From the NCBI GenBank assembly GCA_963744145.1, contig CAVUSO010000001.1, forward strand, positions 1,248,001 through 1,312,000: DNA of 64,000 nt, in the 5' to 3' direction. The translations under genes and the position numbers were made by a program. Each line of letters begins with the position of its first letter. The first letter of the stretch is position 1. The DNA is from an uncultured cyanobacterium (GTDB lineage: Bacteria; Cyanobacteriota; Cyanobacteriia; Cyanobacteriales; CAWUOF01). Positions 38,565-55,864 of the stretch are shown here, piece by piece. The notes under the pieces are model-generated. The model made no database searches. It worked only from the letters and a program-made list of their open reading frames with translations, and was not told the DNA's origin.

Positions 38565-38800
38565 AGGACAGGCAAGATGCCTGTCCCACAACAAAAAAAA
38601 ACTCTTGTGGGACAGGCATCTTGCCTGTCCAATAAATTGATCAACATGACTTTTGCCTTCTTGTCTAATAAAGTTCAGTCAACCGTAGGGGCGAAGCATT
38701 CGGGCGACAACTAATCGGATCAGCCCGTTAACACTATATCCGAATGCTTCGCCCATTCTTTGCCGATATCCCCCAAAATACTCTTAAGTGAACCATATTG
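38565..38800. repeat. REP-like palindromes inside the operon
   Basis: GGACAGGCAAGATGCCTGTCCCACAA...TTGTGGGACAGGCATCTTGCCTGTCC and GTAGGGGCGAAGCATTCGG...CCGAATGCTTCGCCC. Confidence 0.85.
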
Positions 38801-38821
38801 CCCGATAAAGGAGAAAAACTG

Positions 38822-40111
38822 ATGAGTGGTAGTCCAAAACATACCCCAGCAGAGTTAGAAAGACGAAGACAGGAACAGCTAGAAAAAGAACGACAACGTA
38901 AAGCCAAAGAAGAAGCAAGACAAAGAGCAGCAGCAGCAGAGAGAGAAAGACTTCAGCGGTTGGAGACTCTCAGAAACCAGTTAATTGCCCAAGTTCAGGC
39001 GATCGCTTCACAAGTGCAGCAACAACAAAATAATATATATAGTGAGGATGGAACAGCACTCCAGAAACGCTGTCAGAATTTGCGTGATACTCTGGGTCAA
39101 GCCCAAACCGAATCTCAACTCCAGAAGATAGCCCAAGCATCACCTCAGATTGAACAAGATTTGCATAAAGCGGTTAGTCGCAAACGTCGAGATGAGGAGG
39201 AGAAAAAGCGACGGTTAGAATTAGAAAAACAACAGTTTGAACTAGAGGAATTAGAGCGACAAATTTCTCAAATTCCTAAAGCGGATGCAACTAAATTTGA
39301 TGCTAATGGATATGCAACAGTACAGCAAGCAATTGGAACAGTAAAAACCGCGATCGCAAGTAGTAATCCGGAAAGCGTCCGCGCACCCCTAGCTAATGCT
39401 ATAAAAGCATTACAAGATCATACCAATTTAGTAATCCAACATCGAACCGAATGGCTGCAACGTAAAGCTGAAGCGGAACAAGCTATTGGTGAACTTCAAG
39501 CATTTATTGTGGGATTAAGAGCTGATCCAGTAGTGATGCGGTGGCACGGACATACTATAACTGAATTGGAAACTCAAGCACAAACAGCAGTGCAAGCCTT
39601 AGCAGCAGAACAGTTTGAGCAACCCGCCAATATTCTAGCAGTAGCCCAGACGCGAGGACAGCAAATCGTAGAAGAAGCTAATGCCGAGCAAATTAAAGCT
39701 GACCAACGGGATTATATTGCTACCAGTATTGCTCAAACCTTGCAAGACATGGGTTTTATCGTTAGTCCTCCTCAAGCTGAATATGCTGATCATCCAAAAA
39801 CAGCCATGATTTTAAAAGCAGCTACTGCTTCAGGTAAAGGAATTAGTGTCAGTGTTCCAGTAGAAGGTGAAGTCTGGTACGACGTAGATGGATATACCAA
39901 AAGTACCGAAGCAGTTGTTGGTGGTGGTAATGCTGCGGTATGCGATGAAGCGGAACAGGTTTTAACCGATATGCACACTGCTTTAGAGGCAGAATTTGGC
40001 GTTAAAATGGGTGAAATTTCTTGGGAAGGAAAAGACCCTAACCGCAAACCGCGTAAAGCGGATGGACTACCTAATAACGATCAACAGCAGGGTAGAGGAG
40101 GTAATCGATGA
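38822..40111 (+). CDS. Coiled-coil protein with a globular C-terminal domain (unknown function)
   Basis: AAAGGAG SD, MSGSPK start, long Q/E/R-rich heptads, C-terminal LQDMGF...C...FGV; stop overlaps the next ATG. Confidence 0.8.
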   Translation: MSGSPKHTPAELERRRQEQLEKERQRKAKEEARQRAAAAERERLQRLETLRNQLIAQVQAIASQVQQQQNNIYSEDGTALQKRCQNLRDTLGQAQTESQLQKIAQASPQIEQDLHKAVSRKRRDEEEKKRRLELEKQQFELEELERQISQIPKADATKFDANGYATVQQAIGTVKTAIASSNPESVRAPLANAIKALQDHTNLVIQHRTEWLQRKAEAEQAIGELQAFIVGLRADPVVMRWHGHTITELETQAQTAVQALAAEQFEQPANILAVAQTRGQQIVEEANAEQIKADQRDYIATSIAQTLQDMGFIVSPPQAEYADHPKTAMILKAATASGKGISVSVPVEGEVWYDVDGYTKSTEAVVGGGNAAVCDEAEQVLTDMHTALEAEFGVKMGEISWEGKDPNRKPRKADGLPNNDQQQGRGGNR

Positions 40112-42093
40112 ATAGCTCAACTCCCACATCTTCCCGCTGGATTCTCGAATTTGAGAAACAAGTCCATCGCCGTCTGCATATTGTTTTGTATGGTAATATT
40201 CACGACCAGTTTCTCTGGCGCGGTAATTATCAAAATATCCACGAATTTCTCACCGCATACTTTCAAGACTTAAACTTTGAGCTAATTCTTCGGTATGACC
40301 CCATAGATGGGTTTAATTTTGTCAATCCAAAAATGAGACAGGGATTTGATGAATTAGTACGAAGTGGGGTAGCTAAACGGAACCCAGATTTAGGACAAAA
40401 TCCCCCAGTACCTTCACCAGCTCCAAATCCAATGGCACCTCCTCCAAGAGCTAATCCGGGTGCTGTGGGTCCTTCCCTAAATACTAGAGTCTCACCAGAG
40501 GATGCTTTTGGTAATTTGCGAGCTGTCGTATCTCAATCTAAAACTTCAGTAGCTGCAATTGTTGATTTAGGAGATATGCTCACCTCTGATCCAAGTCGCT
40601 ATATTGCTGAAGAGCGAAACGCTTTGGTGTTACTGAATAAATGCACCCTAGAAGCATCTGTGATCAGAGAGGGGGCTTTGAGCGGTTATCGCAATACTTT
40701 GGTGATTTTAGCTAGGGATTTGAAACGGGTGCCAGAGTGGTTTCATCAAAATAATCCCTTTGTCGGGATGGTGCAAATGTCGCGTCCCAATAAAGACGAA
40801 CGATGTCAGTTTATGATGCGTTTTTTCCAGGGATTTTATGAAGGCGATCGCATCAATACTAAACGCTCTTCTCCTCAAGCACCTTCAGAGCTAGAAATTC
40901 TCGCAGAAGAATTTGCTGATCTCACCGAAGGCTTTCGAGCAATGGATTTAGATGCGTTGCGTGCGACTTCTTGGCGTGAGCGCATTCCTCTCCGTGTTAA
41001 AGAAGTCTGGCGGTTAGTGGACTTTTTTAAATTTGGTCTACGGGATGATCCTTGGGAGCAGTTAAGCCCCGAAAAAGTTCGCTCTGCTAGAGAACAACTT
41101 TCTCGCACTGTGATTGGTCAACCTCGTGCAGTTGAATCTGTTACTACTATGCTCACTAGCGCAAGGGTGGGATTGAGCATAAGTAGTAGTGGTCGTAGTG
41201 GCAAACCTAAAGGTATTTTCTTTTTTGTTGGTCCGACAGGAGTTGGCAAAACTGAACTAGCCAAAGCTATGACCAAATTAGTGTTTGGCGATGAGCGATC
41301 GTTTGTCCGTTTTGATATGAGTGAGTACAAAGAAGAACACGCGGCTGAGAAATTAGCAGGCGCTCCTCCCGGTTTTGTGGGTTATGAAGAAGGGGGACAG
41401 CTAACCAATCGCGTGATTGAGCAGCCCTATAGTATTTTGCTGTTTGATGAAATTGAAAAAGCTCATCCCAAGGTGTTAGATAAGTTTTTGCAAATTTTAG
41501 AAGATGGAAGGCTTACTGATGGTAAAGGACAGACTGCTTATTTCAACCAAACTGCAATTATTTTTACTAGCAATATCGGCGCATCGGATTTAACTGATCC
41601 TCAGACAGGTGCGATCGTTCGGTGTGGGATTATGAACAAAGTGCAGCAAGGAAATACTAATGATTTCTCTTACGAAGAGGTAGAAAATCACTTCCGAACT
41701 GAAGTAGATTGGCACTTTACCAGTCGCATTGGTCGGGCGGAACTGCTCAACCGTTTGGGTGATAATATTGTGGTATTTGACTTGCTACGTCCAGATTTTG
41801 TGACTTTAATTGGGCAGAAGTTTTTACGACAACTATCAGATACAGCTCAGGAAAAGTACCGACTCAATTTAAACTTTTTGCCTTCAGTTCTAGATGTTTT
41901 GAGGGTGCGGATGGAACAAGGTAACAATTTACTATTCGGAGGAAGACGGATTAAAACCCTTTTAGAATCATTAGTGGAACGTCCCCTCAATAGTTGGATT
42001 TTTCAAAATTGCCCTGAAACCAGTAAATTAGCAGGGGGCACATTGAGGATTGGGATGACAGTTGATGGATGTTTAGAGGTGACTCATGTTTGA
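40108..42093 (+). CDS. ClpA/B-like AAA+ ATPase with one intact (D2-type) nucleotide-binding domain
   Basis: VIGQ, FFFVGPTGVGKTELAK, RFDMSEY, GAPPGFVGYEEGGQLT, LLFDEIEKAH and DGRLTDGKG motifs; no Walker A in the N-terminal half. Confidence 0.9.
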   Translation: MNSSTPTSSRWILEFEKQVHRRLHIVLYGNIHDQFLWRGNYQNIHEFLTAYFQDLNFELILRYDPIDGFNFVNPKMRQGFDELVRSGVAKRNPDLGQNPPVPSPAPNPMAPPPRANPGAVGPSLNTRVSPEDAFGNLRAVVSQSKTSVAAIVDLGDMLTSDPSRYIAEERNALVLLNKCTLEASVIREGALSGYRNTLVILARDLKRVPEWFHQNNPFVGMVQMSRPNKDERCQFMMRFFQGFYEGDRINTKRSSPQAPSELEILAEEFADLTEGFRAMDLDALRATSWRERIPLRVKEVWRLVDFFKFGLRDDPWEQLSPEKVRSAREQLSRTVIGQPRAVESVTTMLTSARVGLSISSSGRSGKPKGIFFFVGPTGVGKTELAKAMTKLVFGDERSFVRFDMSEYKEEHAAEKLAGAPPGFVGYEEGGQLTNRVIEQPYSILLFDEIEKAHPKVLDKFLQILEDGRLTDGKGQTAYFNQTAIIFTSNIGASDLTDPQTGAIVRCGIMNKVQQGNTNDFSYEEVENHFRTEVDWHFTSRIGRAELLNRLGDNIVVFDLLRPDFVTLIGQKFLRQLSDTAQEKYRLNLNFLPSVLDVLRVRMEQGNNLLFGGRRIKTLLESLVERPLNSWIFQNCPETSKLAGGTLRIGMTVDGCLEVTHV

Positions 42094-43327
42094 TTTGGAA
42101 TTGCTGTGGGATCGACCCGCAAAAATTAGCTCTCAATCGACAACTCATGTGCTGCGATCGCGGATCTATCCTCAATCGGTCGGAAATGCTTTACCTAGCT
42201 TACCCCTACGGATCGCGATCGCTCTCGATACTAGCCAATCAATGCAAGGGGAAAAGCTACAATGTGCTAAGGAAGCTTGCCGTGCGGTTGTTTCTCATTT
42301 ACGTGACACAGATCGCTTATTTCTAGCAGGTTTTTCTACGAGAGTAACACCTTTACTACAATCTCTTACAGGTGGTGCTAATGCTGTTTCATCGGCTAAT
42401 ACAGCGATCGCTAGTTTGCAACCAGAGGGAGTTACTCGCACCGATTTGGCATTAGAATGGATTCAGAATGCCTTACCAAAGGAAACTGGAGTCACAAGAG
42501 TGGGGATTTTGATTACAGATGGTCATGCGACTACTCCCCAAGGTAATCTATTAGATGACGTAACGCCGCTAATTAACCAATCTAGCCAACTGAGTAGTGC
42601 TGGAATTGTGCTGTGTACTGTAGGATTAGGAGATGCAGCTAATTTTAATACAGCTTTTTTAACTGATTTGAGCGACAAGGGAAGGGGTGCGTTTCTCTAT
42701 GCTGACACACCAACTATCCTAAAATCTCTACTCCAAGAAAGACTGGCTGCTTGTCAAGCGATCGCGACGGAAGAAGCTAAACTCCGATTCACTCTAAGTT
42801 CTGGTGTTACCCTCAAAGGTTTTTGTCGTTTCCGTCCCGAATATTTACCTTTGGAAGAAACTGCAAAAAATGAATTAACACTGGGTACGATCGGAACAAA
42901 CTCCCCAACCGATGTATTAATTGACTTAGAAATTCCAGCAAGTGGTTTTGGAGAACCAATGGGTAGTCGAGAAGTAGTTTCAGTCCAGTTAACAGCTAGA
43001 GGAATGACCAACCCGATTACTAAGACAGCAGCGATTACCTATACTAATTCCTACTCAGAAGCGCAAAAAGTTAACGCTGAAGTCAATAACGATCGACTCT
43101 GTTGGGATATTAACGTTTATAGTAATGACCTAACCCGCACTAACGATCCGAAGCGCACAGGAGAATTACTAGATAATATCCAGTTTACAGCTACCCAAGC
43201 CGGACAAGCAAATATTGCGAACCAAGCAGCTCAACAGCTAGATGATCTGAAAAAGACTGGAGTATTGAACCCCCACAAATCAACTGGACTCTTGCGGGAT
43301 TCTCGAAATTTGGGAGGGACAAAATGA
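42086..43327 (+). CDS. von Willebrand factor A domain protein
   Basis: MIDAS DTSQS, ILITDGH and TVGLG motifs. Confidence 0.9.
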   Translation: MFDLELLWDRPAKISSQSTTHVLRSRIYPQSVGNALPSLPLRIAIALDTSQSMQGEKLQCAKEACRAVVSHLRDTDRLFLAGFSTRVTPLLQSLTGGANAVSSANTAIASLQPEGVTRTDLALEWIQNALPKETGVTRVGILITDGHATTPQGNLLDDVTPLINQSSQLSSAGIVLCTVGLGDAANFNTAFLTDLSDKGRGAFLYADTPTILKSLLQERLAACQAIATEEAKLRFTLSSGVTLKGFCRFRPEYLPLEETAKNELTLGTIGTNSPTDVLIDLEIPASGFGEPMGSREVVSVQLTARGMTNPITKTAAITYTNSYSEAQKVNAEVNNDRLCWDINVYSNDLTRTNDPKRTGELLDNIQFTATQAGQANIANQAAQQLDDLKKTGVLNPHKSTGLLRDSRNLGGTK

Positions 43328-43728
43328 ATAGTGGTTTTGGGATCGACCCCATTCCTGGGTTATCTCGACTTACCCCGGATAATGCTAAGTTACTATTATT
43401 AAACGGACCAGCAGCAGCAAGTCGGTTTCCTCTTCATCGAATACGATCGCTGATTGGTCGGAATGATCTACCTTTGATAACAGTAGATATTGATCTAACT
43501 GAATGCGAAATTGGCGATCCAATTGCTATATCTCGTCGTCATGCAGTGATTGAGTGGGTAGAAGGGGAATTACAAATTGTGGATTTGTGCAGTAGGAACG
43601 GTACTTTTGTTGATGGTCAAAAATTGACAGCGATCGCTCCTAATCAACCATCAGCTCCTGTCATTTTAAAAGCGGGAAGTAAGGTAAAACTAGGAAACTT
43701 GGAATTTGAGGTGATCACTCATGGATAA
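43324..43728 (+). CDS. FHA domain protein
   Basis: IGR, ISRRHA and DLCSRNGTFVDG motifs. Confidence 0.93.
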   Translation: MNSGFGIDPIPGLSRLTPDNAKLLLLNGPAAASRFPLHRIRSLIGRNDLPLITVDIDLTECEIGDPIAISRRHAVIEWVEGELQIVDLCSRNGTFVDGQKLTAIAPNQPSAPVILKAGSKVKLGNLEFEVITHG

Positions 43729-44518
43729 GCCGATTGTAAAACTAGCCTACGGTTCCAAAACCGATCCTGGCAAAATTCGTAAAATCAATGAAGATAATCT
43801 TTTATTAGAATCATGGTCAGATGCTTTACTAGCAGTAGTTGCTGATGGAATGGGAGGACATAAAGGAGGAGAGGTAGCAGCCAAAATTGCCGTTGATACT
43901 TTTCGAGAGTTATTAGATCAGCCCTTACCTAAAGAACCTGTTGAACGATACGAACAACTGTTAAAAAAATTTTATGATGCTGATACTGCTATCCGCGAGC
44001 AATCCTCTCAAGAGTTCAGATTGATGGATATGGGAACTACTTTAATGGCAGCGATCGTTACTCCCACAGAATATATTCATCTATATGCTGGTGACTGTCG
44101 TTTATATCACTTCCACCAGGGAGAATTTACTTATATCTCGGCTGATCATTCAGTAGTCAGGATACTGCAAAACTTGGGAAAGATCACCCCAGAAGAAGCA
44201 GCTACTCATCCAATGCGTTCAGTGGTCAACTCCTGTCTAGGTGGTAAGGGAAATACACAATTCTCTGTTGACCCAAAATGGGACGATGAAAAGTTACCTG
44301 TGTTGCGTGAATTATGTCCAGGTGATGTATTACTACTATGCAGCGACGGACTAAATAGCGAAGTAAGTGACAATCAGTTACAAAATTTGGTGCAACAGTC
44401 TGGAAACTCGACCGAAGAACTGACTAAAGCTTGTGCCGAAGCAGCTTTAGAGCATGGTGGTAAAGATAATATTACAGTTATTGCTATTCAGGTACAGGAG
44501 GAAGATCAGCAAAAATAA
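43721..44518 (+). CDS. PP2C/Stp1-type Ser/Thr phosphatase
   Basis: RKINED, VADGMGGH, MGTT, GDCR, CSDGL and GGKDNIT motifs. Confidence 0.95.
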   Translation: MDKPIVKLAYGSKTDPGKIRKINEDNLLLESWSDALLAVVADGMGGHKGGEVAAKIAVDTFRELLDQPLPKEPVERYEQLLKKFYDADTAIREQSSQEFRLMDMGTTLMAAIVTPTEYIHLYAGDCRLYHFHQGEFTYISADHSVVRILQNLGKITPEEAATHPMRSVVNSCLGGKGNTQFSVDPKWDDEKLPVLRELCPGDVLLLCSDGLNSEVSDNQLQNLVQQSGNSTEELTKACAEAALEHGGKDNITVIAIQVQEEDQQK

Positions 44519-44575
44519 GACAAAATTATCAGCAGAAATAGATAGCAAACTTTAACTAATTGGATTGAAAAGTAT

Positions 44576-46000
44576 ATGAACAATGAGCAACTATACCGAC
44601 GAATGTTGGAAGGACAATGGGTCAATGGACAATATCATCTCAAAAAACTCCTGGGAGCAGGAAGTTACGGAGTAGTTTTTCAAGCAGATGAAGTAGTCGG
44701 AAATCGCCTAGTTCGAGAAGTAGCTATTAAACTAATTTCTCCCAATGATGATGATCGCGATCTCCAGCTCCAAGAATTAATTGATGCAGTTAATTTAGAT
44801 CACCCCAATTTAGTGCGATGCTTTACTTCTGGTTTAGTTAAACTCAACGGAGTTGAATTTTTATATTTAGTCATGGAGCTAGCCCAAAAAACTCTCGCTA
44901 AACATTTAGAAAAAAGCTCTTTGTCTGTAGGAGAAGTGCAAAAAATCGTCCAGGAAATTGCTGCTGGATTAGTTTATCTTCATCGTGAACCCCATCCGCG
45001 AGTGCATCGTGATTTGAAACCAGCTAATGTCCTATGGGTAAGCGATCGCTGGAAATTATCAGATTTTGGGTTATTGCGGTCAACTGGTTCTAAGGGTTCA
45101 GCTCGCACCAGTAAAGTTAGGAGAACTGACGGTTATGCTCCCCCAGAAGCTTATCTCGGAGTGGTGGCTCCCACTTGGGATGTGTGGTCATTAGGGGTGA
45201 TCATGGTGGAAATGCTCACGGGACAGCTACCCTTTACAGGAGATACAGAGCAGGAATTGATCGTAAAAGTAATGGACGGAAAACCATCAATCGAATGGTC
45301 AAAAGTCCACCAATCATTCAGAGAGATCATCAAGGGAGCTTTAGAGAAAGAGCGGAAAGACCGATGGACGGCACAAAGGGTGCTGAATACTTTTACCAAA
45401 AAATATCTCCCTCCAACCATCCCATCTATTGTGAGTCCATTTCCTGGGAAAATAGAAATAGGACAGAATCCTTTTACCGCAAAAGGTATCCCTCTATTTG
45501 ACCCAACTCCAAGCATAGTGAGTCAGCCTCCTGTGCAATTGAAGTCAGCAAAAGGGGTAGATTACACTAATTTACAACGCTTACTAGCCGCAGGAAAATG
45601 GAAGGAAGCGGATGAGGAAACAGGCAAAAAAATGTGCGAGGTCATGGGGCGACAAAAAGAAGGTTGGCTAGATGTCGAACATATCGATAATTTTCCCTGT
45701 GAAGACCTTCGCACAATTGATCAACTTTGGGTAAAATCTAGTAACGGTCATTTTGGCTTTTCTGTGCAAAAGCGTATCTATCAAAGTCTCGGTGGAACCC
45801 GGAACTATGATGAGAAAATCTGGGCTGCTTTTGGCGATCGCGTCGGCTGGAGGAAAAATGGAGACTGGATATACTACAGCGACCTCACCTTCTCAACCAA
45901 ATCTCCCGGTGGCCACCTCCCCTTGTGGTGGGGGAAAGGTCCGTGTGTGGTGGTTGGTGCCTCTTCTCTCGCGTCGAGACTTGTAGACTGTAACATATAA
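44576..46000 (+). CDS. Ser/Thr protein kinase-GUN4 domain fusion, copy 1
   Basis: LGAGSYG, VAIK, HRDLKPAN, DFG, APPE; GUN4 motifs WKEADEET, FPCEDLRTIDQLW, SNGHFGFSVQ, GHLP. Confidence 0.93.
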   Translation: MNNEQLYRRMLEGQWVNGQYHLKKLLGAGSYGVVFQADEVVGNRLVREVAIKLISPNDDDRDLQLQELIDAVNLDHPNLVRCFTSGLVKLNGVEFLYLVMELAQKTLAKHLEKSSLSVGEVQKIVQEIAAGLVYLHREPHPRVHRDLKPANVLWVSDRWKLSDFGLLRSTGSKGSARTSKVRRTDGYAPPEAYLGVVAPTWDVWSLGVIMVEMLTGQLPFTGDTEQELIVKVMDGKPSIEWSKVHQSFREIIKGALEKERKDRWTAQRVLNTFTKKYLPPTIPSIVSPFPGKIEIGQNPFTAKGIPLFDPTPSIVSQPPVQLKSAKGVDYTNLQRLLAAGKWKEADEETGKKMCEVMGRQKEGWLDVEHIDNFPCEDLRTIDQLWVKSSNGHFGFSVQKRIYQSLGGTRNYDEKIWAAFGDRVGWRKNGDWIYYSDLTFSTKSPGGHLPLWWGKGPCVVVGASSLASRLVDCNI

Positions 46001-46338
46001 AGCTTACAAAAAATTGTTACATTTTGTAAATACACGATTTCCCACGAAGCCATGCGCCTTCTAGCTTTCCGATACCTGGCACCGACGCCGAGCGAAGTAC
46101 CGACAGTTATTCTGTAGTTTTCTGTAGTATCTGACCCACTACTTCGGGGTTATAACAATTAGCAATGACAAATTTATCAGCCACAGCTAAGATATCTGGA
46201 TTCATTTCCTCAAAATCAGCCCAAGGTAAATTCTTTTCATCTCTTTAATAAGCTCGCGATCGGTGTTGGTGGTGGATGGCGATCGGTGTTTAAAGATTTT
46301 TAATAGGTCGCGATCGGTGTTTCCAATAATCAGTTAAT

Positions 46339-46720
46339 TGTAGGGGCGAAGCATTCGGGCGACAATTAATCGCATAAAACTTTACCCTGAGCGGAGTCGA
46401 AGGGCAGTAATATTATATCCGAATGCTGATGCCGTAGGCATCGCTACGCGAACGCCCTTCTTCGCCGATATCTCCCAAAACATTCTTAATTGAACCGGAT
46501 TGATATATCATTAATTGAACCGGATTTATATATTAATTGAACCGGATTTATATATTAATTGAACCGGGTTTATATATTAATTGAACCGGATTTATATATA
46601 GTTGATCTGTTGGTTGCATAGATGGTGAGGGCAAAGCATTTCGGTAATGGTTTCTTCGTTTCAGCGATAATTTCTTCGCCGAAATGCTTTGCCCCTACAG
46701 GGAACCGAATCGGATTGTGT
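46339..46720. repeat. Composite cassette: REP doublet + 22-25-nt VNTR (5 units) + inverted REP doublet
   Basis: GTAGGGGCGAAGCATTCGG...; (ATTAATTGAACCGGATTTATAT)n; GGGCAAAGCATTTCGG...CCGAAATGCTTTGCCCCTAC. Confidence 0.9.
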
Positions 46721-46920
46721 TTTCTTATATAGATCGATATTAAATATAATAAATGATGTTTTATTGCGATCGCGTTATGTCTTGAATTGGCGGCGATCGC
46801 AGTTAGATAACTAATTAACTGAAACAAGCGATCGCCAATTCCAGTAATCAGAATCTAATCACTATTGTTGGTGGATGGTGATGGCGTTGGCGTGATAATT
46901 TTCATTGACAGTTGAGTTCT

Positions 46921-47185
46921 TTGTAGGGGCGAAGCATTCGGGCGACAATTTATCGCATAAAACCAATAACATTTTATCCGAATGCTTCGCCCTTCTTCGC
47001 CGATATCTCCCAAAACATTCTTAATTGAACCGGGTTTATCTATTAATTGAACCGGATTTATATATAGTTGATCTGTTGGTTTCATGGATGGTGAGGGCAA
47101 AGCATTTCGGTAATGGTTTCTTCGTTTCAACGATAATTTCTTCGCCGAAATGCTTTGCCCCTACAGGGAACCGAATCGGAGTATT
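46921..47185. repeat. Composite REP/VNTR cassette (2 units, no mini-element inserted)
   Basis: Near-identical to 46339-46720. Confidence 0.9.
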
Positions 47186-47375
47186 GTTATATAGATCGAT
47201 ATTAAATATAATAAATGATGTTTAATTGCGATCGCGTTATGTCTTGAATTGGCGGCGATCGCAGTTAGATAAATAATTTTTGTTAAAATTAGAATATTTA
47301 TAGATTTTTGCTTCTTGTAAGTCTATGGATCTATGGGTGTTGATATTTTCGGTTATTCAGGTATATAGTAAAGTT

Positions 47376-47545
47376 AACCATCCGACCTAAACGCATTAAT
47401 ACGAGGGTTTACCATGAGTTTCGACTCACATCGACTCCCAGTGTGCGCTTCCTTCGGTTCCTCCTTTCGACGACCCTCAGAGTAAACGAGCAGGTAAGCG
47501 AACGGGCACACGCAGGTTATGTTTATCCATGTAGGTCGGACTGCG
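47376..47545 (+). ncRNA. Candidate structured non-coding RNA
   Basis: Closed by TCCGACCTA/TAGGTCGGA; internal TGAGT-TTCG-ACTCA hairpin and GTGTGC/GCACAC stem; upstream TTGATA-N18-TATAGT. Confidence 0.45.
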
Positions 47546-47594
47546 ATCGCTCTTAACCGTTTCCTTGAAGTTAACAACAACAAAAACTAAATTT

Positions 47595-47774
47595 ATGGAA
47601 AAAGTTGTATTCAAAACTACTAATAAACAACAACCTACTGACTTTGCTTACTGGCAAAAACAAACGCCTCAAAAACGTTTAGACACTCTCGAACAAATCC
47701 GCCAAGAATATCATCAATATAAATATAATGCTCAACCAAGATTTCAAAGAATTTATACAATTATTAAACGATAA
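47595..47774 (+). CDS. Small protein of the type paired with nucleotidyltransferases (putative antitoxin-like)
   Basis: DFAYWQKQTPQKRLDTLEQIRQEY; overlaps the start of the downstream nucleotidyltransferase remnant. Confidence 0.6.
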   Translation: MEKVVFKTTNKQQPTDFAYWQKQTPQKRLDTLEQIRQEYHQYKYNAQPRFQRIYTIIKR

Positions 47775-47990
47775 TCAGGTTAAATACCTGGTTATTGGTG
47801 GTTATGCTGTGGCAATTCATTAGTTACTTCACCTGATGGAGTAGATTTTCAAACTTGCTATGATTCAAAAATGGAGTTTATTATTGATGAGATGATGATT
47901 AAATTTATCGATCTTGATAATCTCATAAAAAATAAATTAGCATCGGTTAGACTTCAGGATTTGGCAGATTTAGAAAATTTACAGAACTAA
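47728..47990 (+). pseudogene. Internally deleted nucleotidyltransferase (DUF6036-like)
   Basis: MLNQDFKEFIQLLNDNQVKYLVIGGYAVAIH* then, in a shifted frame, GVDFQTCY...LIKNKLASVRLQDLADLENL; the catalytic DxD segment is missing. Confidence 0.7.
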
Positions 47991-48031
47991 TTATTGCACA
48001 ATCAATTTGAATAAATTGAGCGAAAAAGTCT

Positions 48032-49456
48032 ATGAACAATGAGCAACTATGGCGAATGTTAGCAGGAGAATGTGTCAACGGACAATATCACCTCAAAAAA
48101 CTCCTGGGTGTCGGCAGTTACGGCGCAGTTTTTCAAGCAGATGAAGTGGTCGGCGATCGCCTAGTTCGAGAAGTAGCTATTAAGATAATTTCCCCAGATA
48201 ATGATGAAAAAACCCGCGATCGCCAGCTCCAAGAATTGATTGTCGCGGTTAATTTAGATCACCCGAATTTAATCCGTTGTTTTGCTCCAGGGTTAGCTCA
48301 AATTAAAGGATTTGAATTTTTGTATTTGCTAATGGAGTTAGCAGAAGAAACCCTCGCTAAACGTCTAGAAAAAAGTTCTTTGTCATTGGAAGAAGTACAG
48401 AAAATAGTTCAAGAAATAGCTGCCGGATTAGTTTATCTTCATCGTGAACCCCATCCGAAAGTACATCGTGATTTGAAGCCCGCTAATGTACTACGAGTGG
48501 GCGATCGCTGGAAATTATCAGATTTTGGCTTATTGCGCTCAATCGATTCTCAGGGTTCAGCTCGCACTAGTAAAGGTCAGGGAACTAACGGCTATGCTCC
48601 CCCAGAAGCTTATGATGGAGTAGTTGCTCCAGCTTGGGATGTGTGGTCATTAGGAGTAATCATGGTGGAACTGCTCACGGGACAGCTACCCTTTACAGGA
48701 GATACAGAGCAGGAATTGCTCAAAAAAGTAATGGAGGGTAAACCATCAATCGAATGGTCAAAAGTCCACCAATCATTCAGAGAGATGATCAAGGGAGCTT
48801 TAGAGAAAGAGCGGCAAAACCGATGGACGGCAGAAATGGTGCTGAATACTTTTACCAAAAAAGATCTCCCTCCAACTACCCCATCCATTGAGAGTCAGCC
48901 TCCTTTGCAATTGAAGTCAGCAAAAGGAGTAGACTACACTAATTTACAACGCTTACTAGCCGCAGGGAAATGGAAAGAAGCGGATGAGGAAACAAGCAAA
49001 AAAATGTGCGGGGTCATGGGGCGACAAGAAGAAGGTTGGTTAAGAAGCGAAGATATTGATAATTTTCCCTGCGAAGACCTTCGCACAATTGATCAACTTT
49101 GGGTAAAATCTAGTAACGGTCATTTTGGCTTTTCTGTGCAAAAGCGCATCTATCAAAGTCTCGGTGGAACCCGGAACTATGATGAGAAAATTTGGGAAGC
49201 TTTTGGCGATCGCGTTGGCTGGAGGAAAAATGGAGCTTGGATATACTACAGTGACCTCACTTTCTCAACCACTTCTTTGGTGGGCCATATCCCTGGGTTA
49301 CCACTTCTTTGTTTGGAGGGCTATCTCCCTGTTGTATTGGTGGTGAGTGTTTGGATAGGTAAAGAGGTTTTTTGGGTTGTCTCTTCTCTCGCGTCGAGAC
49401 TTGTAGACTCTTCTCCAAGCCAGGCGCATTCTGATTCAGATATCATCCTATTGTAA
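48032..49456 (+). CDS. Ser/Thr protein kinase-GUN4 domain fusion, copy 2
   Basis: Same kinase and GUN4 motifs as copy 1. Confidence 0.93.
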   Translation: MNNEQLWRMLAGECVNGQYHLKKLLGVGSYGAVFQADEVVGDRLVREVAIKIISPDNDEKTRDRQLQELIVAVNLDHPNLIRCFAPGLAQIKGFEFLYLLMELAEETLAKRLEKSSLSLEEVQKIVQEIAAGLVYLHREPHPKVHRDLKPANVLRVGDRWKLSDFGLLRSIDSQGSARTSKGQGTNGYAPPEAYDGVVAPAWDVWSLGVIMVELLTGQLPFTGDTEQELLKKVMEGKPSIEWSKVHQSFREMIKGALEKERQNRWTAEMVLNTFTKKDLPPTTPSIESQPPLQLKSAKGVDYTNLQRLLAAGKWKEADEETSKKMCGVMGRQEEGWLRSEDIDNFPCEDLRTIDQLWVKSSNGHFGFSVQKRIYQSLGGTRNYDEKIWEAFGDRVGWRKNGAWIYYSDLTFSTTSLVGHIPGLPLLCLEGYLPVVLVVSVWIGKEVFWVVSSLASRLVDSSPSQAHSDSDIILL

Positions 49457-49746
49457 TAATACCGTGATCGGTGTTAGGGGTGGATGGTGATCGCAGTTTA
49501 ACGATTTTCAATAATAAGATCGCGATCGGTGTTTCCGGTAATCAAAATCTAATTGCTGTTAGTGGATGGCGATCGCAGGTTGACGATTTTAATAATAAGA
49601 CAATCTTAAATTGAATCAATCTATCATCATAAATTTGGATAATAAATGACATTTAAGCGCGATCGCATTATGTCTTTAATTGCAGGCGATCGCAGTTTAA
49701 CGATTTTCACGGTTGTCGCGATCGGTGTTTCCAATAATCAGTTAAT

Positions 49747-50085
49747 TGTAGGGGCGAAGCATTCGGGCGACAATTAATCGCACAAAACTTTACCCTGAGC
49801 GGAGTCGAAGGGCAGTAACATTATATCCGAATGCTTCGCCCTTCTTCGCCGATATCTCCCAAAACATTCTTAATTGAACCGGATTTATATATCATTAATT
49901 GAACTGGATTTATATATCATTAATTGAACCGGATTTATATATTAATTGAACCGGATTTATATATAGTTGATCTGTTGGTTGCATAGATGGTGAGGGCAAA
50001 GCATTTCGGTAATGGTTTCTTCGTTTCAGCGATAATTTCTTCGCCGAAATGCTTTGCCCCTACAGGGAACCGAATCGGATTGTGT
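49747..50085. repeat. Composite REP/VNTR cassette (4 units)
   Basis: Near-identical to 46339-46720. Confidence 0.9.
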
Positions 50086-50226
50086 TTTCTTATATAGATC
50101 GATATTAAATATAATAAATGATGTTTAATTGCGATCGCATTATGTCTTTAATTGGCGGCGATCGCAGTTAGATAACTAATTATCTGCTAAAATAAGAAAG
50201 AAGTCAACCACTATTAAAGTTCCTCA

Positions 50227-51235
50227 ATGCAAGACAAACCCCGCGCCGACTACGATAGTCCTTGGAAAGAAGCCATTAACAGTTACTTTGAACCTTTCAT
50301 GAATTTTTTCTTTCCGGTCATCCATCAAGAAATCGACTGGACAAAAGGCTATGAAACCTTAGATGCAGACTTACAAGAAGTCGTAAGAGATGCAGAAACG
50401 GGGAATCGTTTAGCCGATAAGCTCGTGAAAGTTTGGTTAAATCATAGCACCCAGGAAATTTTAATCCTGGTGCATATCGAAATCCAAGGAGGAGTAGATC
50501 CGAACTTTGCGAAACGGATGTTTATCTACAATCACCGTTTATTTGACCGATACGATCGAGAAGTGATTAGTTTAGCAGTATTAGGAGATGAGCAAAAATC
50601 CTGGCGTCCCAATAGTTATGGTTATGCAATGTGTGGATTTAGTAGCCAATTGCAGTTTCCCATCGTCAAACTCTTAGACTACCAAGAACAATGGGAGTTG
50701 CTTGAACAAAGCACTAATCCTTTTGCTGTAATTGTCATGGCACATTTAACTGCAAAGGAAACCACCAGAGATCCACAAAGAAGATTACAAGGGAAACTCA
50801 GCATAGTGCGGGGGCTATATGAACGGGGCTATAATAGGGAGGAAATCAAGCGAACTATTTCGGTTAATTGACTGGATGATGGTATTACCAGACCAGCTAG
50901 AACAGGATTTTCGGGTGGAATACAAACGGTTTCAGGAGGAAAATCAAGTGCCATATATCACCAGTATTGAACGTTTAGCGAAAGCAGAAGGTAGAGAAGA
51001 AGGCTTAGAAGAAGGGATCGAACAAGGAATCGAACAAGGAATCGAACGAGGCAGTGTACAAACAGCACAGGAAAATATCATCACAGTGTTGGAGACTAGG
51101 TTTGGAGAAGTACCAGAAATCTTCAGAGAGCGGATTAATCAAATCGAAGATTTAGCCACATTAAGACAACTTCTCATTCGTGGCATTACGATCGCTTCTT
51201 TCGAGGATTTTGAGCAAGAAATCTCTTCAAATTAG
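50227..51235 (+). pseudogene. Rpn-family (PD-(D/E)XK) gene frameshifted near 50848
   Basis: YDSPWKE, ADKLVKV, HIEIQ, RMFIYN, NPFA, then ELFRLIDWMM...PYITSIER...GIEQ repeats in the other frame. Confidence 0.85.
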
Positions 51236-51376
51236 TCACTAGGTTCTAGTTAATTCCCCTATTGGGTTGAGGGGCGATCGCTATTTATCTGCTCTGATAT
51301 AGAGATTTAGATGCGATCGCCTCTTCTCACAAAATACCACCCCGAGACAAATTGAATAAATTGATCGAAAAATCCT

Positions 51377-52699
51377 ATGAACAATGAGCAACTGTGGCGA
51401 ATGTTGACAGGAGAATGTGTCAATGGACAATATCACCTCAAAAAACTCCTGGGCGTCGGCAGTTACGGCGCAGTTTTTCAAGCGGATGAAGTTGTTGGCG
51501 ATCGCTTAATTCGCCAAGTAGCTGTTAAGCTAATTTCTCCAGATGGAGATGATAAAAATCGCGATCGCCAGCTCCAAGAATTAATTACTGCCGTTAATCT
51601 AGATCACCCGAATTTAGTACGCTGCTTTACTTCAGGGTTAGCTGAAATCAAAGGATTTGAATTTTTGTATTTAGTCATGGAGTTAGCAGAAGAAACCCTC
51701 ACCAAAAGTCTTTCAGAAAAAAGCTCTTTGTCTGTGGGAGAAGTGCAAAAAATAGTTGAGGAAATAGCTTCAGCATTGGTTTATCTTCATCATGAACCCG
51801 AGCGGAGAGTACATCGCGATTTGAAACCAGCTAATGTACTAAGAGTAGGCGATCGCTGGAAATTATCAGATTTTAGCTTATTGCGGTCAATCGGTTCTAA
51901 GGGTTCAGCTCGCACCAGTAAAGGTCAGGGAACTAACGGCTATGCTCCTCCAGAAGCTTATGATGGAGTAGTTGCTCCAGCTTGGGATGTGTGGTCATTA
52001 GGAGTAATCATGGTGGAACTGCTCACGGGACAGCCACCCTTTACAGGAGATACAGAGCAGGAATTGATCAAAAAAGTCATGGAGGGTAAACCATCAATCG
52101 AATGGTCAAAAGTCCACCAATCATTCAGAGAGATGATCAAGGGAGCTTTAGAGAAAGAGCGGAAAGACCGATGGACGGCAGAAATGGTGTTGAATACTTT
52201 TAAAGAGCGCCCGACCATATTACCGTCAGCAGATTACCAAAAGTTAGAAAGCTTACTAGCCGCAGGAAAATGGGAAGAAGCTGATCAGGAAACAGCAAAA
52301 AAAATGTGCGCGGTAATGGAGCGAGAAAAAGAAGGTTGGCTAAGACCCGAAGATATTGATAATTTTCCCTGCGAAGACCTTCGCACAATTGATCAACTTT
52401 GGGTACATTATAGCAATGGTCATTTTGGCTTTTCCGTGCAGAAGCGGATCTATCAAAGTCTGGGTGGAACTTGCAACTACGATCAAAACATTTGGACTGC
52501 TCTTGGCGATCGCGTTGGTTGGAGGCAAAATGAACAATGGCTATACTACAATGATCTCACATTCTCAGTCGAAAATTCTCCCGAAGGCCATCTTCCATTG
52601 GGAGTGAGAAAAGCGATTTGGCGCGGTTGTGGTTTTGCAGGTTGGTTTGGTCTTTGTGGCACTTCTCTCGCGTCGAGACTTGGAGATTGTAACATCTAA
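51377..52699 (+). CDS. Ser/Thr protein kinase-GUN4 domain fusion, copy 3
   Basis: Same motifs, but DFG reads DFS and the linker is short. Confidence 0.93.
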   Translation: MNNEQLWRMLTGECVNGQYHLKKLLGVGSYGAVFQADEVVGDRLIRQVAVKLISPDGDDKNRDRQLQELITAVNLDHPNLVRCFTSGLAEIKGFEFLYLVMELAEETLTKSLSEKSSLSVGEVQKIVEEIASALVYLHHEPERRVHRDLKPANVLRVGDRWKLSDFSLLRSIGSKGSARTSKGQGTNGYAPPEAYDGVVAPAWDVWSLGVIMVELLTGQPPFTGDTEQELIKKVMEGKPSIEWSKVHQSFREMIKGALEKERKDRWTAEMVLNTFKERPTILPSADYQKLESLLAAGKWEEADQETAKKMCAVMEREKEGWLRPEDIDNFPCEDLRTIDQLWVHYSNGHFGFSVQKRIYQSLGGTCNYDQNIWTALGDRVGWRQNEQWLYYNDLTFSVENSPEGHLPLGVRKAIWRGCGFAGWFGLCGTSLASRLGDCNI

Positions 52700-52936
52700 G
52701 ACTTTCAGACAATTTTTAGATTTTATGAATACAATATTTTTCACGAAGCCATCTGCTTGATTTCTTTCCGATACCTGAATGATCCACGACTTGGGGGTTA
52801 TAACAATTAGCGATCGCATTTTATCTCTTTGTTAATAAGATTGCGATCGCTGTTTCGGGTAATCAGAATATAATCACTGTTATTGGTGGATGGCGATGGC
52901 GTTGCCGTGATAATTTTCATTGATAGTTCAGTTACT

Positions 52937-53310
52937 TGTAGGGGCGAAGCATTCGGGCGACAATTAATCGCACAAAACTTTACCCTGAGCGTTCCCTGAG
53001 CGGAGTCGAAGGGCGGAGTCGAAGGGCGGAGTCGAAGGGCAGTAATATTATATCCGAATGCTTCGCCCTTCTTCGCCGATATCTCCCAAAACATTCTTAA
53101 TTGAACCGGATTGATATATCATTAATTGAACCGGATTGATATATCATTAATTGAACCGGGTTTATCTATTAATTGAACCGGATTTATATATAGTTGATCT
53201 GTTGGTTTCATCGATGGTGAGGGCAAAGCATTTCGGTAATGGTTTCTTCGTTTGGGCGATAATTTCTTCACCGAAATGCTTTGCCCCTACAGGGAACTGA
53301 ATCGGCTGGT
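52937..53310. repeat. Composite REP/VNTR cassette (4 units) with nested mini-elements
   Basis: Near-identical to the other cassettes; CCCTGAG x2 then GTCGAAGGG x3. Confidence 0.9.
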
Positions 53311-53351
53311 GTTTTCTCCTATAGATCGCTATTAAATTGAATTAATCTATT

Positions 53352-53958
53352 ATGGTTATGCAATGTGTGGATTTAGTAGCCAATTGCAGTTTCCCATCGT
53401 CAAACTCTTAGACTACCAAGAACAATGGGAGTTTTTGGAACAAAGTACCAATCATGAAAGCAGTAATTGTCATGGCACATTTAACAGCAAAGGAAACCAC
53501 CAGAGATCCACAAAGAAGATTACAAGGGAAACTCAGCATAGTGCGGGGACTATATGAACGGGGCTATAATAGGGAGGAAATCAAGCGAACTATTTCGGTT
53601 AATTGACTGGATGATGGTATTACCAGACCAGCTAGAACAGGATTTTCGGGTGGAATACAAACGGTTTCAGGAGGAAAATCAAGTGCCATATATCACCAGT
53701 ATTGAACGTTTAGCCAAAGCAGAAGGTAGAGAAGAAGGCTTAGAAGAAGGGATCGAACAAGGAATCGAACGAGGCAGTGTACAAAATTCACGGGAAAATA
53801 TCATCACGGTGTTGGAGACTAGGTTTGGAGAAGTGCCAGAAATCTTCAGAGAGCGGATTAATCAAATCGAAAATTTAGCCACATTAAGACAACTTCTCAT
53901 TCGTGGCATTACGATCGCTTCTTTCGAGGATTTTGAGCAAGAAATCTCTTCAAATTAG
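53352..53958 (+). pseudogene. 5'-truncated second copy of the Rpn-family gene
   Basis: Near-identical to about 50618-51235, including the same frameshift. Confidence 0.85.
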
Positions 53959-54096
53959 TCACTAGGATCTAGTTAATTCCAATATTGGGTTGAGGAGCGA
54001 TCGCAATTTATCTGCTCTTATATAGAGATTTAGATGCGATCGCCTCTTCTCAAAATACACCCCGATACAAATTGAAGAAATTGAGCGAAAAAGTCT

Positions 54097-55488
54097 ATGC
54101 ACGATCAGCAACTGTGGCGAATCTTAGAAGGAGAATGTGTCAACGGACAATATCATCTCAAAAAACTATTAGGAGTAGGAGGCTTTGGAGGAGTTTTTCA
54201 AGCAGATGAAGTGGTCGGCGATCGCCTAGTTCGAGAAGTAGCTATTAAGCTAATTTCCCCAGATAGTGATGAAAAAAATCGCGATCGCCAGCTCCAAGAA
54301 TTGATTGATGCTGTTAATCTAGATCACCCCAATTTAGTGCGATGCTTTACTTCTGGTTTAGTTGAAATCAAAGGGTTTAAATTTTTGTATTTAGTAATGG
54401 AACTAGCCCAAGAAACCCTGGCTAAACGTCTAGAAAAAAGCTCTTTGTCGGTGGAAGAAGTGCAAAAAATCGTCCAGGAAATCGCTGCTGGATTGGTTTA
54501 TCTTCATCATGAACCCGATCCGAAAGTACATCGCGATTTGAAGCCTGCTAATGTACTAAGAGTAGGCGATCGCTGGAAATTATCAGATTTTGGCTTATTG
54601 CGTTCAATCGGTTCTAAAGGTTCAGCTCGTACCAGTAAAGGTGGGGGAACTTACAGCTATGCTCCCCCAGAAGCTTATGACGGAGTAGTTGCTCCAGCTT
54701 GGGATGTATGGTCATTAGGAGTAATCATGGTGGAAATGCTCACAGGACAGCTACCCTTTACAGGAGATACAGAGCAGGAATTGATCGTAAAAGTAATGGA
54801 GGGTAAACCATCAATCGAATGGTCAAAAGTCCACCAATCATTCAGAGAGATGATCAAGGGAGCTTTAGAGAAAGAGCGGAAAGACCGATGGACAGCAGAA
54901 ATGGTGCTGAATACTTTGACCGGACTAACCCCAACTCGTCCAACAGAAAGCCAGCAGACTGTATCCTTGAAGTCAGCAAAAGGAATAGATTACACTAATT
55001 TACAATGCTTACTAGCCGCAGGGAAATGGGAGGAAGCTGATGAAGAAACATATAAAAAAATGTGCGAGGTCATGGGACGACAAAGAGAAGGTTGGCTAGA
55101 TGTCGAACAGATCGATAATTTTCCTAGTGAAGACCTTCGCACAATTGATCAACTTTGGGTAAAATCTAGTAACGGTCATTTTGGCTTTTCTGTGCAAAAG
55201 CGCATCTATCAAAGTCTGGGTGGAACCCAGAACTATGATCAGACAATTTGGGAAGCTTTTGGCGATCGCATCGGTTGGAGGAAAAATGGATACTGGATAT
55301 CTACCAGTAAACACACCTTCTCAAAGGATTCTCCCGTTGGCCATCTCCCCTCGGCGAGGTGGGGGCGCGATTGGGGTACTATGGTGGCGGCGGCGGCTGT
55401 GTGGGGGTGGCGTTATTTTATCGGGGGGGAAGGGATTTTTGATGGTTTTAAATGTGGGTGGTCTCTTCTCTCGCGTCGAGACTTGTAA
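54097..55488 (+). CDS. Ser/Thr protein kinase-GUN4 domain fusion, copy 4
   Basis: Same motifs; terminates in an alternative frame of the conserved 3' anchor (SLLSRRDL*). Confidence 0.93.
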   Translation: MHDQQLWRILEGECVNGQYHLKKLLGVGGFGGVFQADEVVGDRLVREVAIKLISPDSDEKNRDRQLQELIDAVNLDHPNLVRCFTSGLVEIKGFKFLYLVMELAQETLAKRLEKSSLSVEEVQKIVQEIAAGLVYLHHEPDPKVHRDLKPANVLRVGDRWKLSDFGLLRSIGSKGSARTSKGGGTYSYAPPEAYDGVVAPAWDVWSLGVIMVEMLTGQLPFTGDTEQELIVKVMEGKPSIEWSKVHQSFREMIKGALEKERKDRWTAEMVLNTLTGLTPTRPTESQQTVSLKSAKGIDYTNLQCLLAAGKWEEADEETYKKMCEVMGRQREGWLDVEQIDNFPSEDLRTIDQLWVKSSNGHFGFSVQKRIYQSLGGTQNYDQTIWEAFGDRIGWRKNGYWISTSKHTFSKDSPVGHLPSARWGRDWGTMVAAAAVWGWRYFIGGEGIFDGFKCGWSLLSRRDL

Positions 55489-55493
55489 ACATC

Positions 55494-55692: not shown

Positions 55693-55864
55693 GTTTTCTC
55701 ATGTAGATCGATATTAAATTGAATTAATCTATTATCGTAAATTGGGATAATCAATGATGTTTAAGTGCGATCGCATTATGGTTTTAATTGGAGGCGATCT
55801 CACTTAGATAACTAATTATTTGCTAAAATGAGAAAGAAGTCAAGGTGATCACTGGGTTGTTTCG

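Follow-up and report, generated by a model that had tools for sequence, protein, structure and literature searches.

How can a gene keep a constant ending when the DNA just ahead of that ending varies freely in length, and with it the reading frame? The question is raised by four paralogous genes on the + strand of a 64,000-nucleotide (nt) stretch of contig CAVUSO010000001.1 from an uncultured cyanobacterium, called the window below, each of which encodes a Ser/Thr kinase fused to a GUN4-like domain. The core of this domain ends at the residues GHLP and is followed by a loop of variable length and then by the anchor, a 23-nt core with a short tail (Table 1). An earlier note on this DNA, made from the sequence alone, described the anchor of copy 1 as a frame-proof ending and inferred a cis-acting nucleic-acid recognition site. 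We find that relatives in many cyanobacterial families use the same anchor DNA in all three frames. The anchor is probably the 3' boundary of a hypervariable cassette within the GUN4-like domain, serving as a frame-independent code for the last helix of the domain.

One anchor DNA, three readings

Translation of the copy 1 anchor gives LFSRVETCRL*, SSLASRLVDCNI and LLSRRDL, exactly as quoted in the earlier note. The stops lie at anchor nt 24-26 in the LLSRRDL frame (TAG, 45984-45986), at nt 31-33 in the LFSRVETC frame (TAA, 45991-45993) and at nt 38-40 in the SLASRL frame (TAA, 45998-46000), which is the frame used by copy 1. Exact copies of the 23-nt core begin at 45961, 49381 and 55463, and a copy agreeing at 22 of 23 positions begins at 52660. 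Use of the SLASRL frame by copies 1-3, and termination of copy 4 as SLLSRRDL* at 55488, were likewise correctly described. The claim that all three frames stop within 40 nt is true of copy 1 alone among the window copies. In copy 3 the LLSRRDL frame no longer has its stop (TAG to GAG, in TTGGAG), and copies 2 and 4 diverge after about nt 28-29, where the other two frames have no nearby stop. In copy 2 the tail and flank are replaced past nt 29, so that the SLASRL reading extends to 49456.

Three-frame stops are not rare in themselves, being present in 8.9% of 40-nt segments (3798/42640) and at 11 of the 38 long open reading frame (ORF) ends of the window. What is real, and far beyond chance, is the motif L-x-S-R common to the three frames (LFSR, LASR and LLSR) together with its conservation in relatives. 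The motif appeared in all three frames in only 3 of 100,000 random 40-mers and 2 of 100,000 shuffles, and a scan of the window located it at the anchors and at a few low-complexity spots only.

To follow the anchor in relatives, 77 loci from many families, with one genome sampled per species, were taken from the best 80 of at least 580 related stretches and analysed together with the window, giving 87 GUN4-core hits. An anchor site was defined by at least 19/23 identity to the 23-nt core within 600 nt downstream of the GUN4 core. Anchor DNA follows 68 of the 87 hits; the remaining 19 comprise one contig end and diverged anchors, many with a recognisable variant ending. Frame B (SLASRL, SLASRLVxCNI) is used at 27 sites, frame A (LFSRVETC, LFSRVETCKL) at 21 and frame C (LLSRRDL) at 20, and at two of the frame-B sites the ORF terminates ahead of the anchor. 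The same anchor DNA is present in Nostocales, Oscillatoriales, Chroococcales and Pleurocapsales.

Tabulation of the C-termini of GUN4-domain proteins, which the earlier note had proposed as a check, gave the same three endings in many genera and at similar frequency. Sorted by regular expressions, the best 120 of 3339 hits comprised 51 SLASRL, 22 LFSRVETC and 29 LLSRRDL endings and 18 others; fragments and diverged forms make up several of the 18, and the SLASRL count includes one LFSRIETC protein that was sorted there wrongly. Among the best 150 representatives at 50% identity, of 5383 hits, the numbers were 22, 22 and 24, with 82 others. The octapeptide SLLSRRDL terminates 12 of the 29 LLSRRDL-type proteins in the set of 120.

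The anchor is conserved as DNA, third positions included, as the earlier note had stated for the core. Information content is 1.62 bits/nt over nt 1-23, the part by which sites were chosen, and 1.14 bits over nt 24-40, which were not used for site choice. Third positions of the GUN4 core have 0.68 bits, or 0.93 where the residue is invariant. The full set of canonical stops is found at 52 of the 68 sites, and 76-93% of sites have retained the stops of frames that they do not use (16-18 of 20 or 21; 25/27). The proposal that inserts of any length give a terminated protein is thus borne out by three endings in use and by the retention of unused stops. Within nt 3-26, substitutions show no excess of synonymous change for the frame used (36%, 24% and 55% on the diagonal for the three frames), and frame-specific purifying selection on the core was not seen; genes of frames B and C both favour changes that are synonymous in frame C. 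The translated tail is better kept in B genes, with 0.11 mismatches/nt versus 0.18-0.25. Almost exclusive use of one frame with free synonymous variation in the anchor, the outcome named earlier as contrary to the idea, was seen neither at the 68 sites nor in the protein sets.

The frame used is distributed nearly at random on the domain tree: the tree of GUN4 cores requires 29 frame changes on 68 tips against a mean of 32.4 in shuffles, and 23 of 200 shuffles were as low. Variants of the anchor and flank track taxa and not frames; L013, L041 and L044, from Microcystis and Pannus, share one variant and use three frames. The end of the Pfam model was considered as a guide to the original frame and was discarded, as matches end at model positions 124-136 in every frame class. 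All four window copies match PF05419 (GUN4) with E values of 3.5e-45 to 5.6e-43, ending at position 124-129 of 141.

An ordinary explanation would combine a conserved C-terminal helix with recent duplication, and would treat endings of the copy 4 type as frameshift pseudogenes. The window copies are indeed 80-100% identical across most of their length, and the frequency of three-frame stops at ORF ends given above also suits this explanation. It is already contradicted by near-equal frame use at 68 sites in many families and in two protein sets, by the retention of stops in unused frames, by the same DNA in four orders and by the conservation of the LLSRRDL ending itself, and we regard it as extremely improbable.

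The anchor consensus is similar to itself at shifts of 7, 2 and 5 nt, the offsets between the three readings. At a shift of 7 nt, 18 of 33 positions match, a value reached by 3 of 20,000 shuffles. Readings A and B give two ten-residue peptides that run in parallel, L-F/A-S-R-V/L-x-x-C-K/N-L/I, in which LASRLVxCNI of reading B repeats the A motif 7 nt later, and LLSRRDL of reading C corresponds to its first half. Leu, Ser and Arg are the three amino acids with six codons each, and the overlap of three readings is feasible because of this. Endings in distant relatives follow the pattern hydrophobic-hydrophobic-S-R-hydrophobic-x-x-C-x-hydrophobic. GUN4-like domains on plasmids (31-50% identity) end, for example, in FLSRIENCGL, LLSRFDACGF or FLARLLTCEL, with only 11-21 of 26 nt matching the anchor; they keep the peptide and not the DNA, which indicates that the peptide motif predates the frozen DNA. 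In L052 the heptamer CTGTAAT is present three times after the anchor (6455-6514), and the consensus tail contains the similar heptamers TGTAAAC and TGTAACA. These hint that the tail may have arisen from heptamer repeats, whose 7-nt period would move the frame by one.

The copy 1 domain was modelled by AlphaFold2 with a mean predicted local distance difference test (pLDDT) score of 88.8, and of 59 in the block over the loop. In the SLASRL reading the model confidently places a terminal helix over the anchor (residues 143-152, blocks at pLDDT 77-90), and it aligns over its full length with solved Gun4 structures (template modelling score 0.81-0.84; 0.74-0.84 when normalised by query across 1z3x, 4xkc and 1y6i). 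Canonical Gun4 (PDB 1Y6I, 1Z3X, 4XKB/4XKC) shares the fold and is homologous in sequence as far as GHLPL (E 1e-24 to 1e-22). The sequence likeness ends there, no counterpart of the loop and anchor can be aligned, and the domains considered here, unlike canonical Gun4, are fused to kinases, caspases, TIR, TPR, CHAT and NACHT modules. Where a protein has two GUN4 domains, the anchor is retained in the internal one, with its stop replaced, and a Pro/Gln-rich linker follows. Internal anchors mostly read LFSRVETC; that of L009 (713-772) reads LLSRRDL, with TAG changed to TTT.

The earlier note also pointed to a hairpin in the anchor, TCTCG-CGT-CGAGA. The hairpin is present and weak: as DNA it folds at -2.9 kcal/mol (z = -0.2), a stability matched by 80 of 200 shuffles. 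Among 66 distinct sequences, 13-15 cannot form the two inner pairs and just one change is compensatory; a function for the hairpin is not supported.

Literature searches, with subscription journals mostly outside their reach, found no prior description of a frame-robust anchor of this kind; the available part of PMC9529120 lists, without comment, an annotated 15-residue peptide ending in SLASRLVNCNI. As far as these searches show, constant DNA that codes the same short peptide in three frames across a phylum, behind a loop of free length, is an undescribed gene organisation. It provides a natural example of coding that is robust to frameshift, and of selection that acts, in different copies of a gene, on three readings that overlap.

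The loop ahead of the anchor

Loop length was measured from the Pro codon of GHLP to the 23-nt core. The window loops leave remainders of 2, 2, 2 and 1 on division by three in copies 1-4; the insert of copy 4, given earlier as 113 nt and not a multiple of three, measures 112 nt and is indeed not such a multiple. Over the 68 sites the loop is 29-129 nt long, with a median of 60, and the three remainders are represented by 21, 20 and 27 loops. Loop composition (G.42, T.32, A.16, C.10) differs from that of the GUN4 core (G.28, T.23, A.32, C.17), amounts to 74% G+T and is equal at codon positions 1-3, i.e. without codon periodicity. GGG accounts for 47% of Gly codons in loops versus 22% in the core, and at least four runs of two or more G are present in 47 of 68 loops versus 4 of 68 controls. 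Loops open in all frames number 14 of 68, against 7.6 ± 1.9 in shuffles, a weak effect, and a rule that loops are built to stay open in every frame was rejected. The loop after GHLP presumably corresponds to the lid loop over the porphyrin pocket of Gun4.

Loops are replaced wholesale and with sharp borders. L013 and L041, two contigs of one Microcystis metagenome-assembled genome, agree at about 98% of positions as far as the GHLP codons; they then carry unrelated loops of 65 and 31 nt, which set different frames, and identity resumes from the anchor to +75. Among 133 pairs with at least 80% DNA identity in the GUN4 core, only two pairs share a loop, both at least 99.6% identical, and the other 131 are at background. 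The 5' border at GHLP is conserved only as protein, and its wobble bases vary among the window copies.

The near-identical surroundings and unrelated loops of L013 and L041 would suit cassette exchange, in which homologous recombination swaps or retains loops among paralogues, the core on one side and the anchor with its flank on the other serve as arms, and gene conversion together with three-frame selection holds the anchor constant. The association of anchor and flank variants with taxa, and the presence of several paralogues per locus (four in the window, three in L004), also favour such exchange. However, no loop occurs twice on different cores, a comparison made with one genome per species, in which sharing within a genome is hardly visible; among the 133 close pairs, sharing is confined to near-identical genes. 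Searched with blastn-short, each window loop matches only itself, the next best match in the window having an E value of 0.24 or worse, and none has a hit in the fetched loci L001-L077. Swapping alone would also leave the codon-blind, G+T-rich composition unexplained. Cassette exchange is rather unlikely on this evidence.

The earlier note compared the anchor with the conserved element of diversity-generating retroelements (DGRs). There are similarities: in both, a hypervariable 3' stretch of a ligand-binding domain is bounded on its 3' side by an element conserved at the nucleotide level, and the available parts of PMC7159879 and PMC7517822 place GUN4, in cyanobacterial conflict systems, in the C-terminal slot otherwise held by the DGR-linked FGS/C-type-lectin domain. 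The analogy is not supported. No reverse-transcriptase (RVT) domain was found in the 45 ORFs of the 64-kb window scanned against Pfam, and no template repeat in the window or in L001-L077. GUN4 loops of 29-129 nt shift the frame, whereas DGR variable regions keep length and frame. Variation of the GUN4 loops is wholesale rather than adenine-specific, the loops of close paralogues being unalignable. A conserved 3' DNA element is present, as in the initiation of mutagenic homing (IMH) element of DGRs, but its hairpin has neither covariation nor excess stability.

Contingency loci resemble the GUN4 loops in that the downstream reading is altered whenever the length changes by other than a multiple of three. 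They differ in that Tandem Repeats Finder detected no tandem repeat array in the four window loops, and in that the outcome here is not on or off, every frame being terminated with the same motif. An analogy, in working only, is with the N-regions of V(D)J joints, where a binding loop contains a filler that varies in length, is biased in composition and is bordered on both sides by conserved coding sequence. Two-thirds of V(D)J joins are out of frame and lost, whereas the segment downstream of the GUN4 loop can be read in all frames. The recombinase, the signal sequences and the somatic process are features of V(D)J joining, and the analogy does not extend to them.

The reading that we prefer, of the anchor as a frame-independent boundary, brings these observations together. 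The loop is replaced whole, at a length random modulo three, and a frame-robust anchor would be needed because of this. As the anchor can be read in any frame, each new loop would give a closed and terminated domain, and the frame used would be reshuffled faster than the domain diverges. Each base would act as first, second and third codon position of a selected peptide, and the DNA would be frozen. Purifying selection on one helix motif, read in three overlapping ways, accounts best for the conservation of the coding part; frame-robustness is presumably what is selected for, and the loop is presumably a variable ligand lid. The cis-acting nucleic-acid site envisaged in the earlier note is not required for the first 26-40 nt, while a nucleic-acid role is likely for the tail and the flank of about 100 nt.

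Several points weigh against this reading. The DNA sample consists of the best matches among the related stretches, and the choice of sites by identity of at least 19/23 inflates the conservation of nt 1-23. The tail, where it is untranslated, is still 75-82% identical per nt. Microcystis orthologues in separate 90% clusters have identical loops (P0103-P0120 and P0050-P0055), indicating that turnover is episodic and that selection on all frames operates through the birth or exchange of paralogues and not through continuous switching. The AlphaFold2 model of copy 4, with the LLSRRDL ending, has a pLDDT of only 42-50 over residues 131-174, so that its entire C-terminal third is of low confidence and structural equivalence of this ending to the others is tentative. 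Finally, non-coding conservation runs about 100 nt past the stops, to about +145 from the anchor start and at fixed spacing. Since it lies beyond every stop, coding cannot account for the flank.

The post-GHLP loop is marked as a hypervariable specificity determinant of GUN4-like domains, a group that forms 5383 representative clusters at 50% identity. This suggests that the abundant cyanobacterial GUN4 fusions are variable receptors rather than plain tetrapyrrole sensors.

The conserved flank and its Y1 neighbour

In about 840 kb, made up of the window and the fetched loci, a 19-nt tail motif occurs 19 times, each time downstream of a GUN4 end, and in 13 of 15 cases its distance from the core motif is exactly 97 nt. 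The same DNA contains 69 anchor-like sites, of which 68 lie behind a GUN4 core and the exception is at a contig end. The tail has a GTAG/GTAA tag followed by a TGTAAC/GTTACA palindrome. A search of Rfam with 44000-56500, at E values up to 1, returned only a chance miRNA match. RNAalifold of 21 anchor and flank sequences gave -2.6 kcal/mol without covariation, and a structured RNA is not supported. A promoter and terminator scan of 45850-46350 found none in the flank; a TTACAG-17-TAnnnn promoter was dropped as its second hexamer does not have the invariant bases, and a small ORF on either strand was rejected as start codons and frames are not conserved. The anchor and flank had no match in a phage collection.

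Directly after the flank, at 10 sites including the window, lies a convergent gene, or its remnant, of a Y1 transposase-like family of about 255 amino acids (aa). The gene is intact at 3 of the 87 sites (L041 591-1379, L002 6541-7311, L005 6632-7414) and broken or a remnant in L017, L076, L029, L062, L043, L018 and the window (46122-46244). The protein matches Pfam Y1_Tnp (2.8e-20), and both the HUH and the Y motif can be made out in translation; the best NCBIfam model, at 71 bits and below the cut-off of 80, is that of RAYT (REP_Tyr_transpos), the tyrosine transposases associated with repetitive extragenic palindromic (REP) elements. Plasmid homologues, present at 7 places in 5 records, abut the 3' end of a GUN4 domain in 5 of 6 loci examined (L078-L082 among them), and one plasmid has several copies of the gene. 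The family is placed almost exclusively convergent to GUN4 3' ends, with the flank between. In Nostoc punctiforme plasmid pNPUN02 (L080 4006-5743) the GUN4 domain adjoining the Y1 gene is split by insertion of an ISL3 transposase.

The likeness to REP/RAYT systems thus includes the best-scoring model and the Y1_Tnp match and, to judge from the available parts of PMC3733652 and PMC6006769, the tag followed by a short palindrome, as in tagged REPs. In contrast to REPs, the anchor element is found only at GUN4 gene ends in the 840 kb and overlaps coding sequence instead of being dispersed between genes, its palindrome is broken in many copies without compensation, and the Y1 gene can be present in several copies on one plasmid. 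The comparison with IS200/IS605 insertion sequences (ISs), which have two ends with subterminal hairpins, also breaks down: conservation is unbroken from the anchor to the Y1 stop codon, but the far sides of seven elements cannot be aligned and contain no conserved second end. A two-ended IS around the Y1 gene was rejected on these grounds.

The unbroken conservation as far as the Y1 stop codon could nevertheless mean that the segment from the anchor through the flank to the Y1 gene represents one end of an element, IS200/IS605-like or REP-like, inserted into the loop. Such an element would provide the C-terminus together with a stop in each frame, terminal stops being common in insertion sequences. 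The likeness of copies 2 and 4 to the other copies ceases at nt 28-29, copy 2 does not have the segment of flank plus remnant present in copy 1, and in L041 the anchor and flank recur in degenerate form beyond the Y1 gene, all of which would suit an insertion. Yet internal GUN4 domains carry the same peptide (L009 in the same DNA) and are read through without a flank, the anchor helix belongs to the fold and aligns with solved Gun4, and the peptide motif is found in distant relatives that do not share the DNA. Every one of the 19 tail motifs, like 68 of the 69 anchor-like sites, lies behind a GUN4 core, and a conserved second end was not found. An origin of the anchor as a mobile-element end is very unlikely.

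A second proposal, which gives concrete form to the idea of the earlier note, would make the anchor and flank the cis-acting site of a dedicated diversifier, in which the Y1 (HUH) protein or another enzyme recognises them as single-stranded DNA (ssDNA) and cuts at the border of loop and anchor, new G+T-rich filler is added, and three-frame coding is secondary. The 3' border of the loop is set at the DNA level and the 5' border at GHLP only as protein, the borders of loop replacement are sharp, and the loop composition looks non-coding, with an excess of G-runs. Conservation of the flank and its constant spacing of 97 nt, the Y1 gene or remnant at 10 sites and 5 of 6 plasmid loci, and a tag and palindrome resembling tagged REP elements (available parts of PMC3733652 and PMC6006769) all point the same way. 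Set against these are the rarity of the intact Y1 gene (3/87 sites), the absence of convincing covariation in either hairpin, the unconserved far side of the Y1 gene and the loops shared by orthologues of the Microcystis clusters, which speak against continuous hypermutation. We hold a dedicated diversifier to be possible, if on the unlikely side.

With the anchor taken as a frame-independent boundary, the flank and the neighbouring Y1 gene may still take part in making or moving loops. The codon-blind, G+T-rich loop, the DNA-defined 3' border, the flank and the Y1 neighbour point to, rather than demonstrate, a targeted loop-making process. A more specific version, which we put forward as speculation and think quite unlikely, is a cyanobacterial system that diversifies the ligand lids of GUN4-like immune or signalling sensors independently of reverse transcriptase: a RAYT-like HUH nuclease or another enzyme would cut ssDNA at the anchor, template-free G+T-rich filler of any length would be added, and the three-frame anchor would waste no join. 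If true, template-free filler would be a bacterial counterpart of junctional (N-region) diversity in which the out-of-frame problem is solved. The flank and the dedicated Y1 protein, one enzyme and one 40-nt site, provide handles on a possible second, retroelement-free route to protein diversification.

Gene context and neighbouring observations

Table 1. Positions in the window of the kinase-GUN4 genes, their parts and adjoining features
Feature	Position	Strand	Remarks
Gene row 5' of copy 1	38798..44518	+	437-aa protein, AAA+ ATPase, vWA, FHA, PP2C
Kinase-GUN4 copy 1	44576-46000	+	ORF
GUN4-like domain core, copy 1	45533..45922	+	ends at GHLP; inside gene 44576-46000
Loop, copy 1	45923..45960	+	38 nt, G+T-rich
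Anchor, copy 1	45961..46000	+	23-nt core and tail with three stops
Conserved non-coding 3' flank, copy 1	46001..46105	+	conserved in many genera, found downstream of GUN4 ends only
Y1 (HUH) RAYT-like gene remnant	46122..46244	-	residues 207-252 (C-terminal part); tblastn E 1.3e-9, 57% identity; convergent with copy 1
Kinase-GUN4 copy 2	48032-49456	+	ORF
Loop, copy 2	49295..49380	+	86 nt
Anchor, copy 2	49381..49409	+	equal to copy 1 over 29 nt
Kinase-GUN4 copy 3	51377-52699	+	ORF
Loop, copy 3	52598..52659	+	62 nt
Anchor, copy 3	52660..52699	+	core 22/23; conserved flank to about 52777
Kinase-GUN4 copy 4	54097-55488	+	ORF
Loop, copy 4	55351..55462	+	112 nt, shifts frame
Anchor, copy 4	55463..55490	+	LLSRRDL*, stop 55486-55488; likeness to other copies stops at nt 28

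The first kinase-GUN4 gene lies directly 3' of a gene row whose ATPase matches AAA_2/AAA_5 and whose 437-aa protein has no family match. The row provides a conflict-system-like context. According to the available part of PMC7159879 (Kaur et al. 2020), GUN4 occurs at the C-terminus and solely in cyanobacterial vWA-MoxR conflict systems, and it is named there alongside the DGR-linked FGS/C-type-lectin domain. The genes found here, with vWA, AAA_2/AAA_5, FHA and PP2C preceding the kinase-GUN4 genes, may belong to such a vWA-MoxR (VMAP) system, and the ATPase is a candidate MoxR-type protein. The search for related stretches found relatives in cyanobacterial records only. The linker between kinase and GUN4 domain is a second variable stretch (about 45400-45530 in copy 1 and the matching places in copies 2-4), contains indels and is longest in copy 1.

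The spacers between the paralogues are filled by a dispersed repeat family (46246-47300, 49454-50207, 52780-53356, 55493-55843), of which shorter copies lie near 13003-13059, 18098-18228, 20932-21057 and 38672-38800; it is present on both strands in the window. Tandem arrays of a 22-25-nt unit (TTAATTGAACCGGATTTATATA) are found between the paralogues at 46486-46599, 47021-47065, 49870-49964 and 53097-53191, and an array of the unit follows copy 4 directly (55493-55525). A segment of about 750 nt located 5' of copies 3 and 4 is duplicated with 94% identity (50616-51372, 53350-54092), and its ORFs (50819-51235, 53554-53958) have no family match and contain 12-nt tandem repeats.

An ORF family with a DSPWKE N-terminal motif occurs at 12 sites, at most 3 kb downstream of GUN4 genes. 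Its full-length member in L005 (7503-8546) contains DUF4351 and has a weak match to Rpn nuclease/putative transposase (24.7 bits); the window member (50227-50871, +) is shorter, at 214 aa, and has no family match.

Elsewhere in the window, a molybdopterin oxidoreductase gene is apparently split into a C-terminal Molydop_binding part and an N-terminal part (27932-28465 and 32296-34191, both on the - strand), with two transposase-type genes between them: an IS605 OrfB/TnpB-like gene and a DUF4277 transposase-like gene, at 28646-29947 (-) and 30243-31886 (+). Two DUF3370 paralogues adjoin each other at 16601-18085 and 18275-19633.

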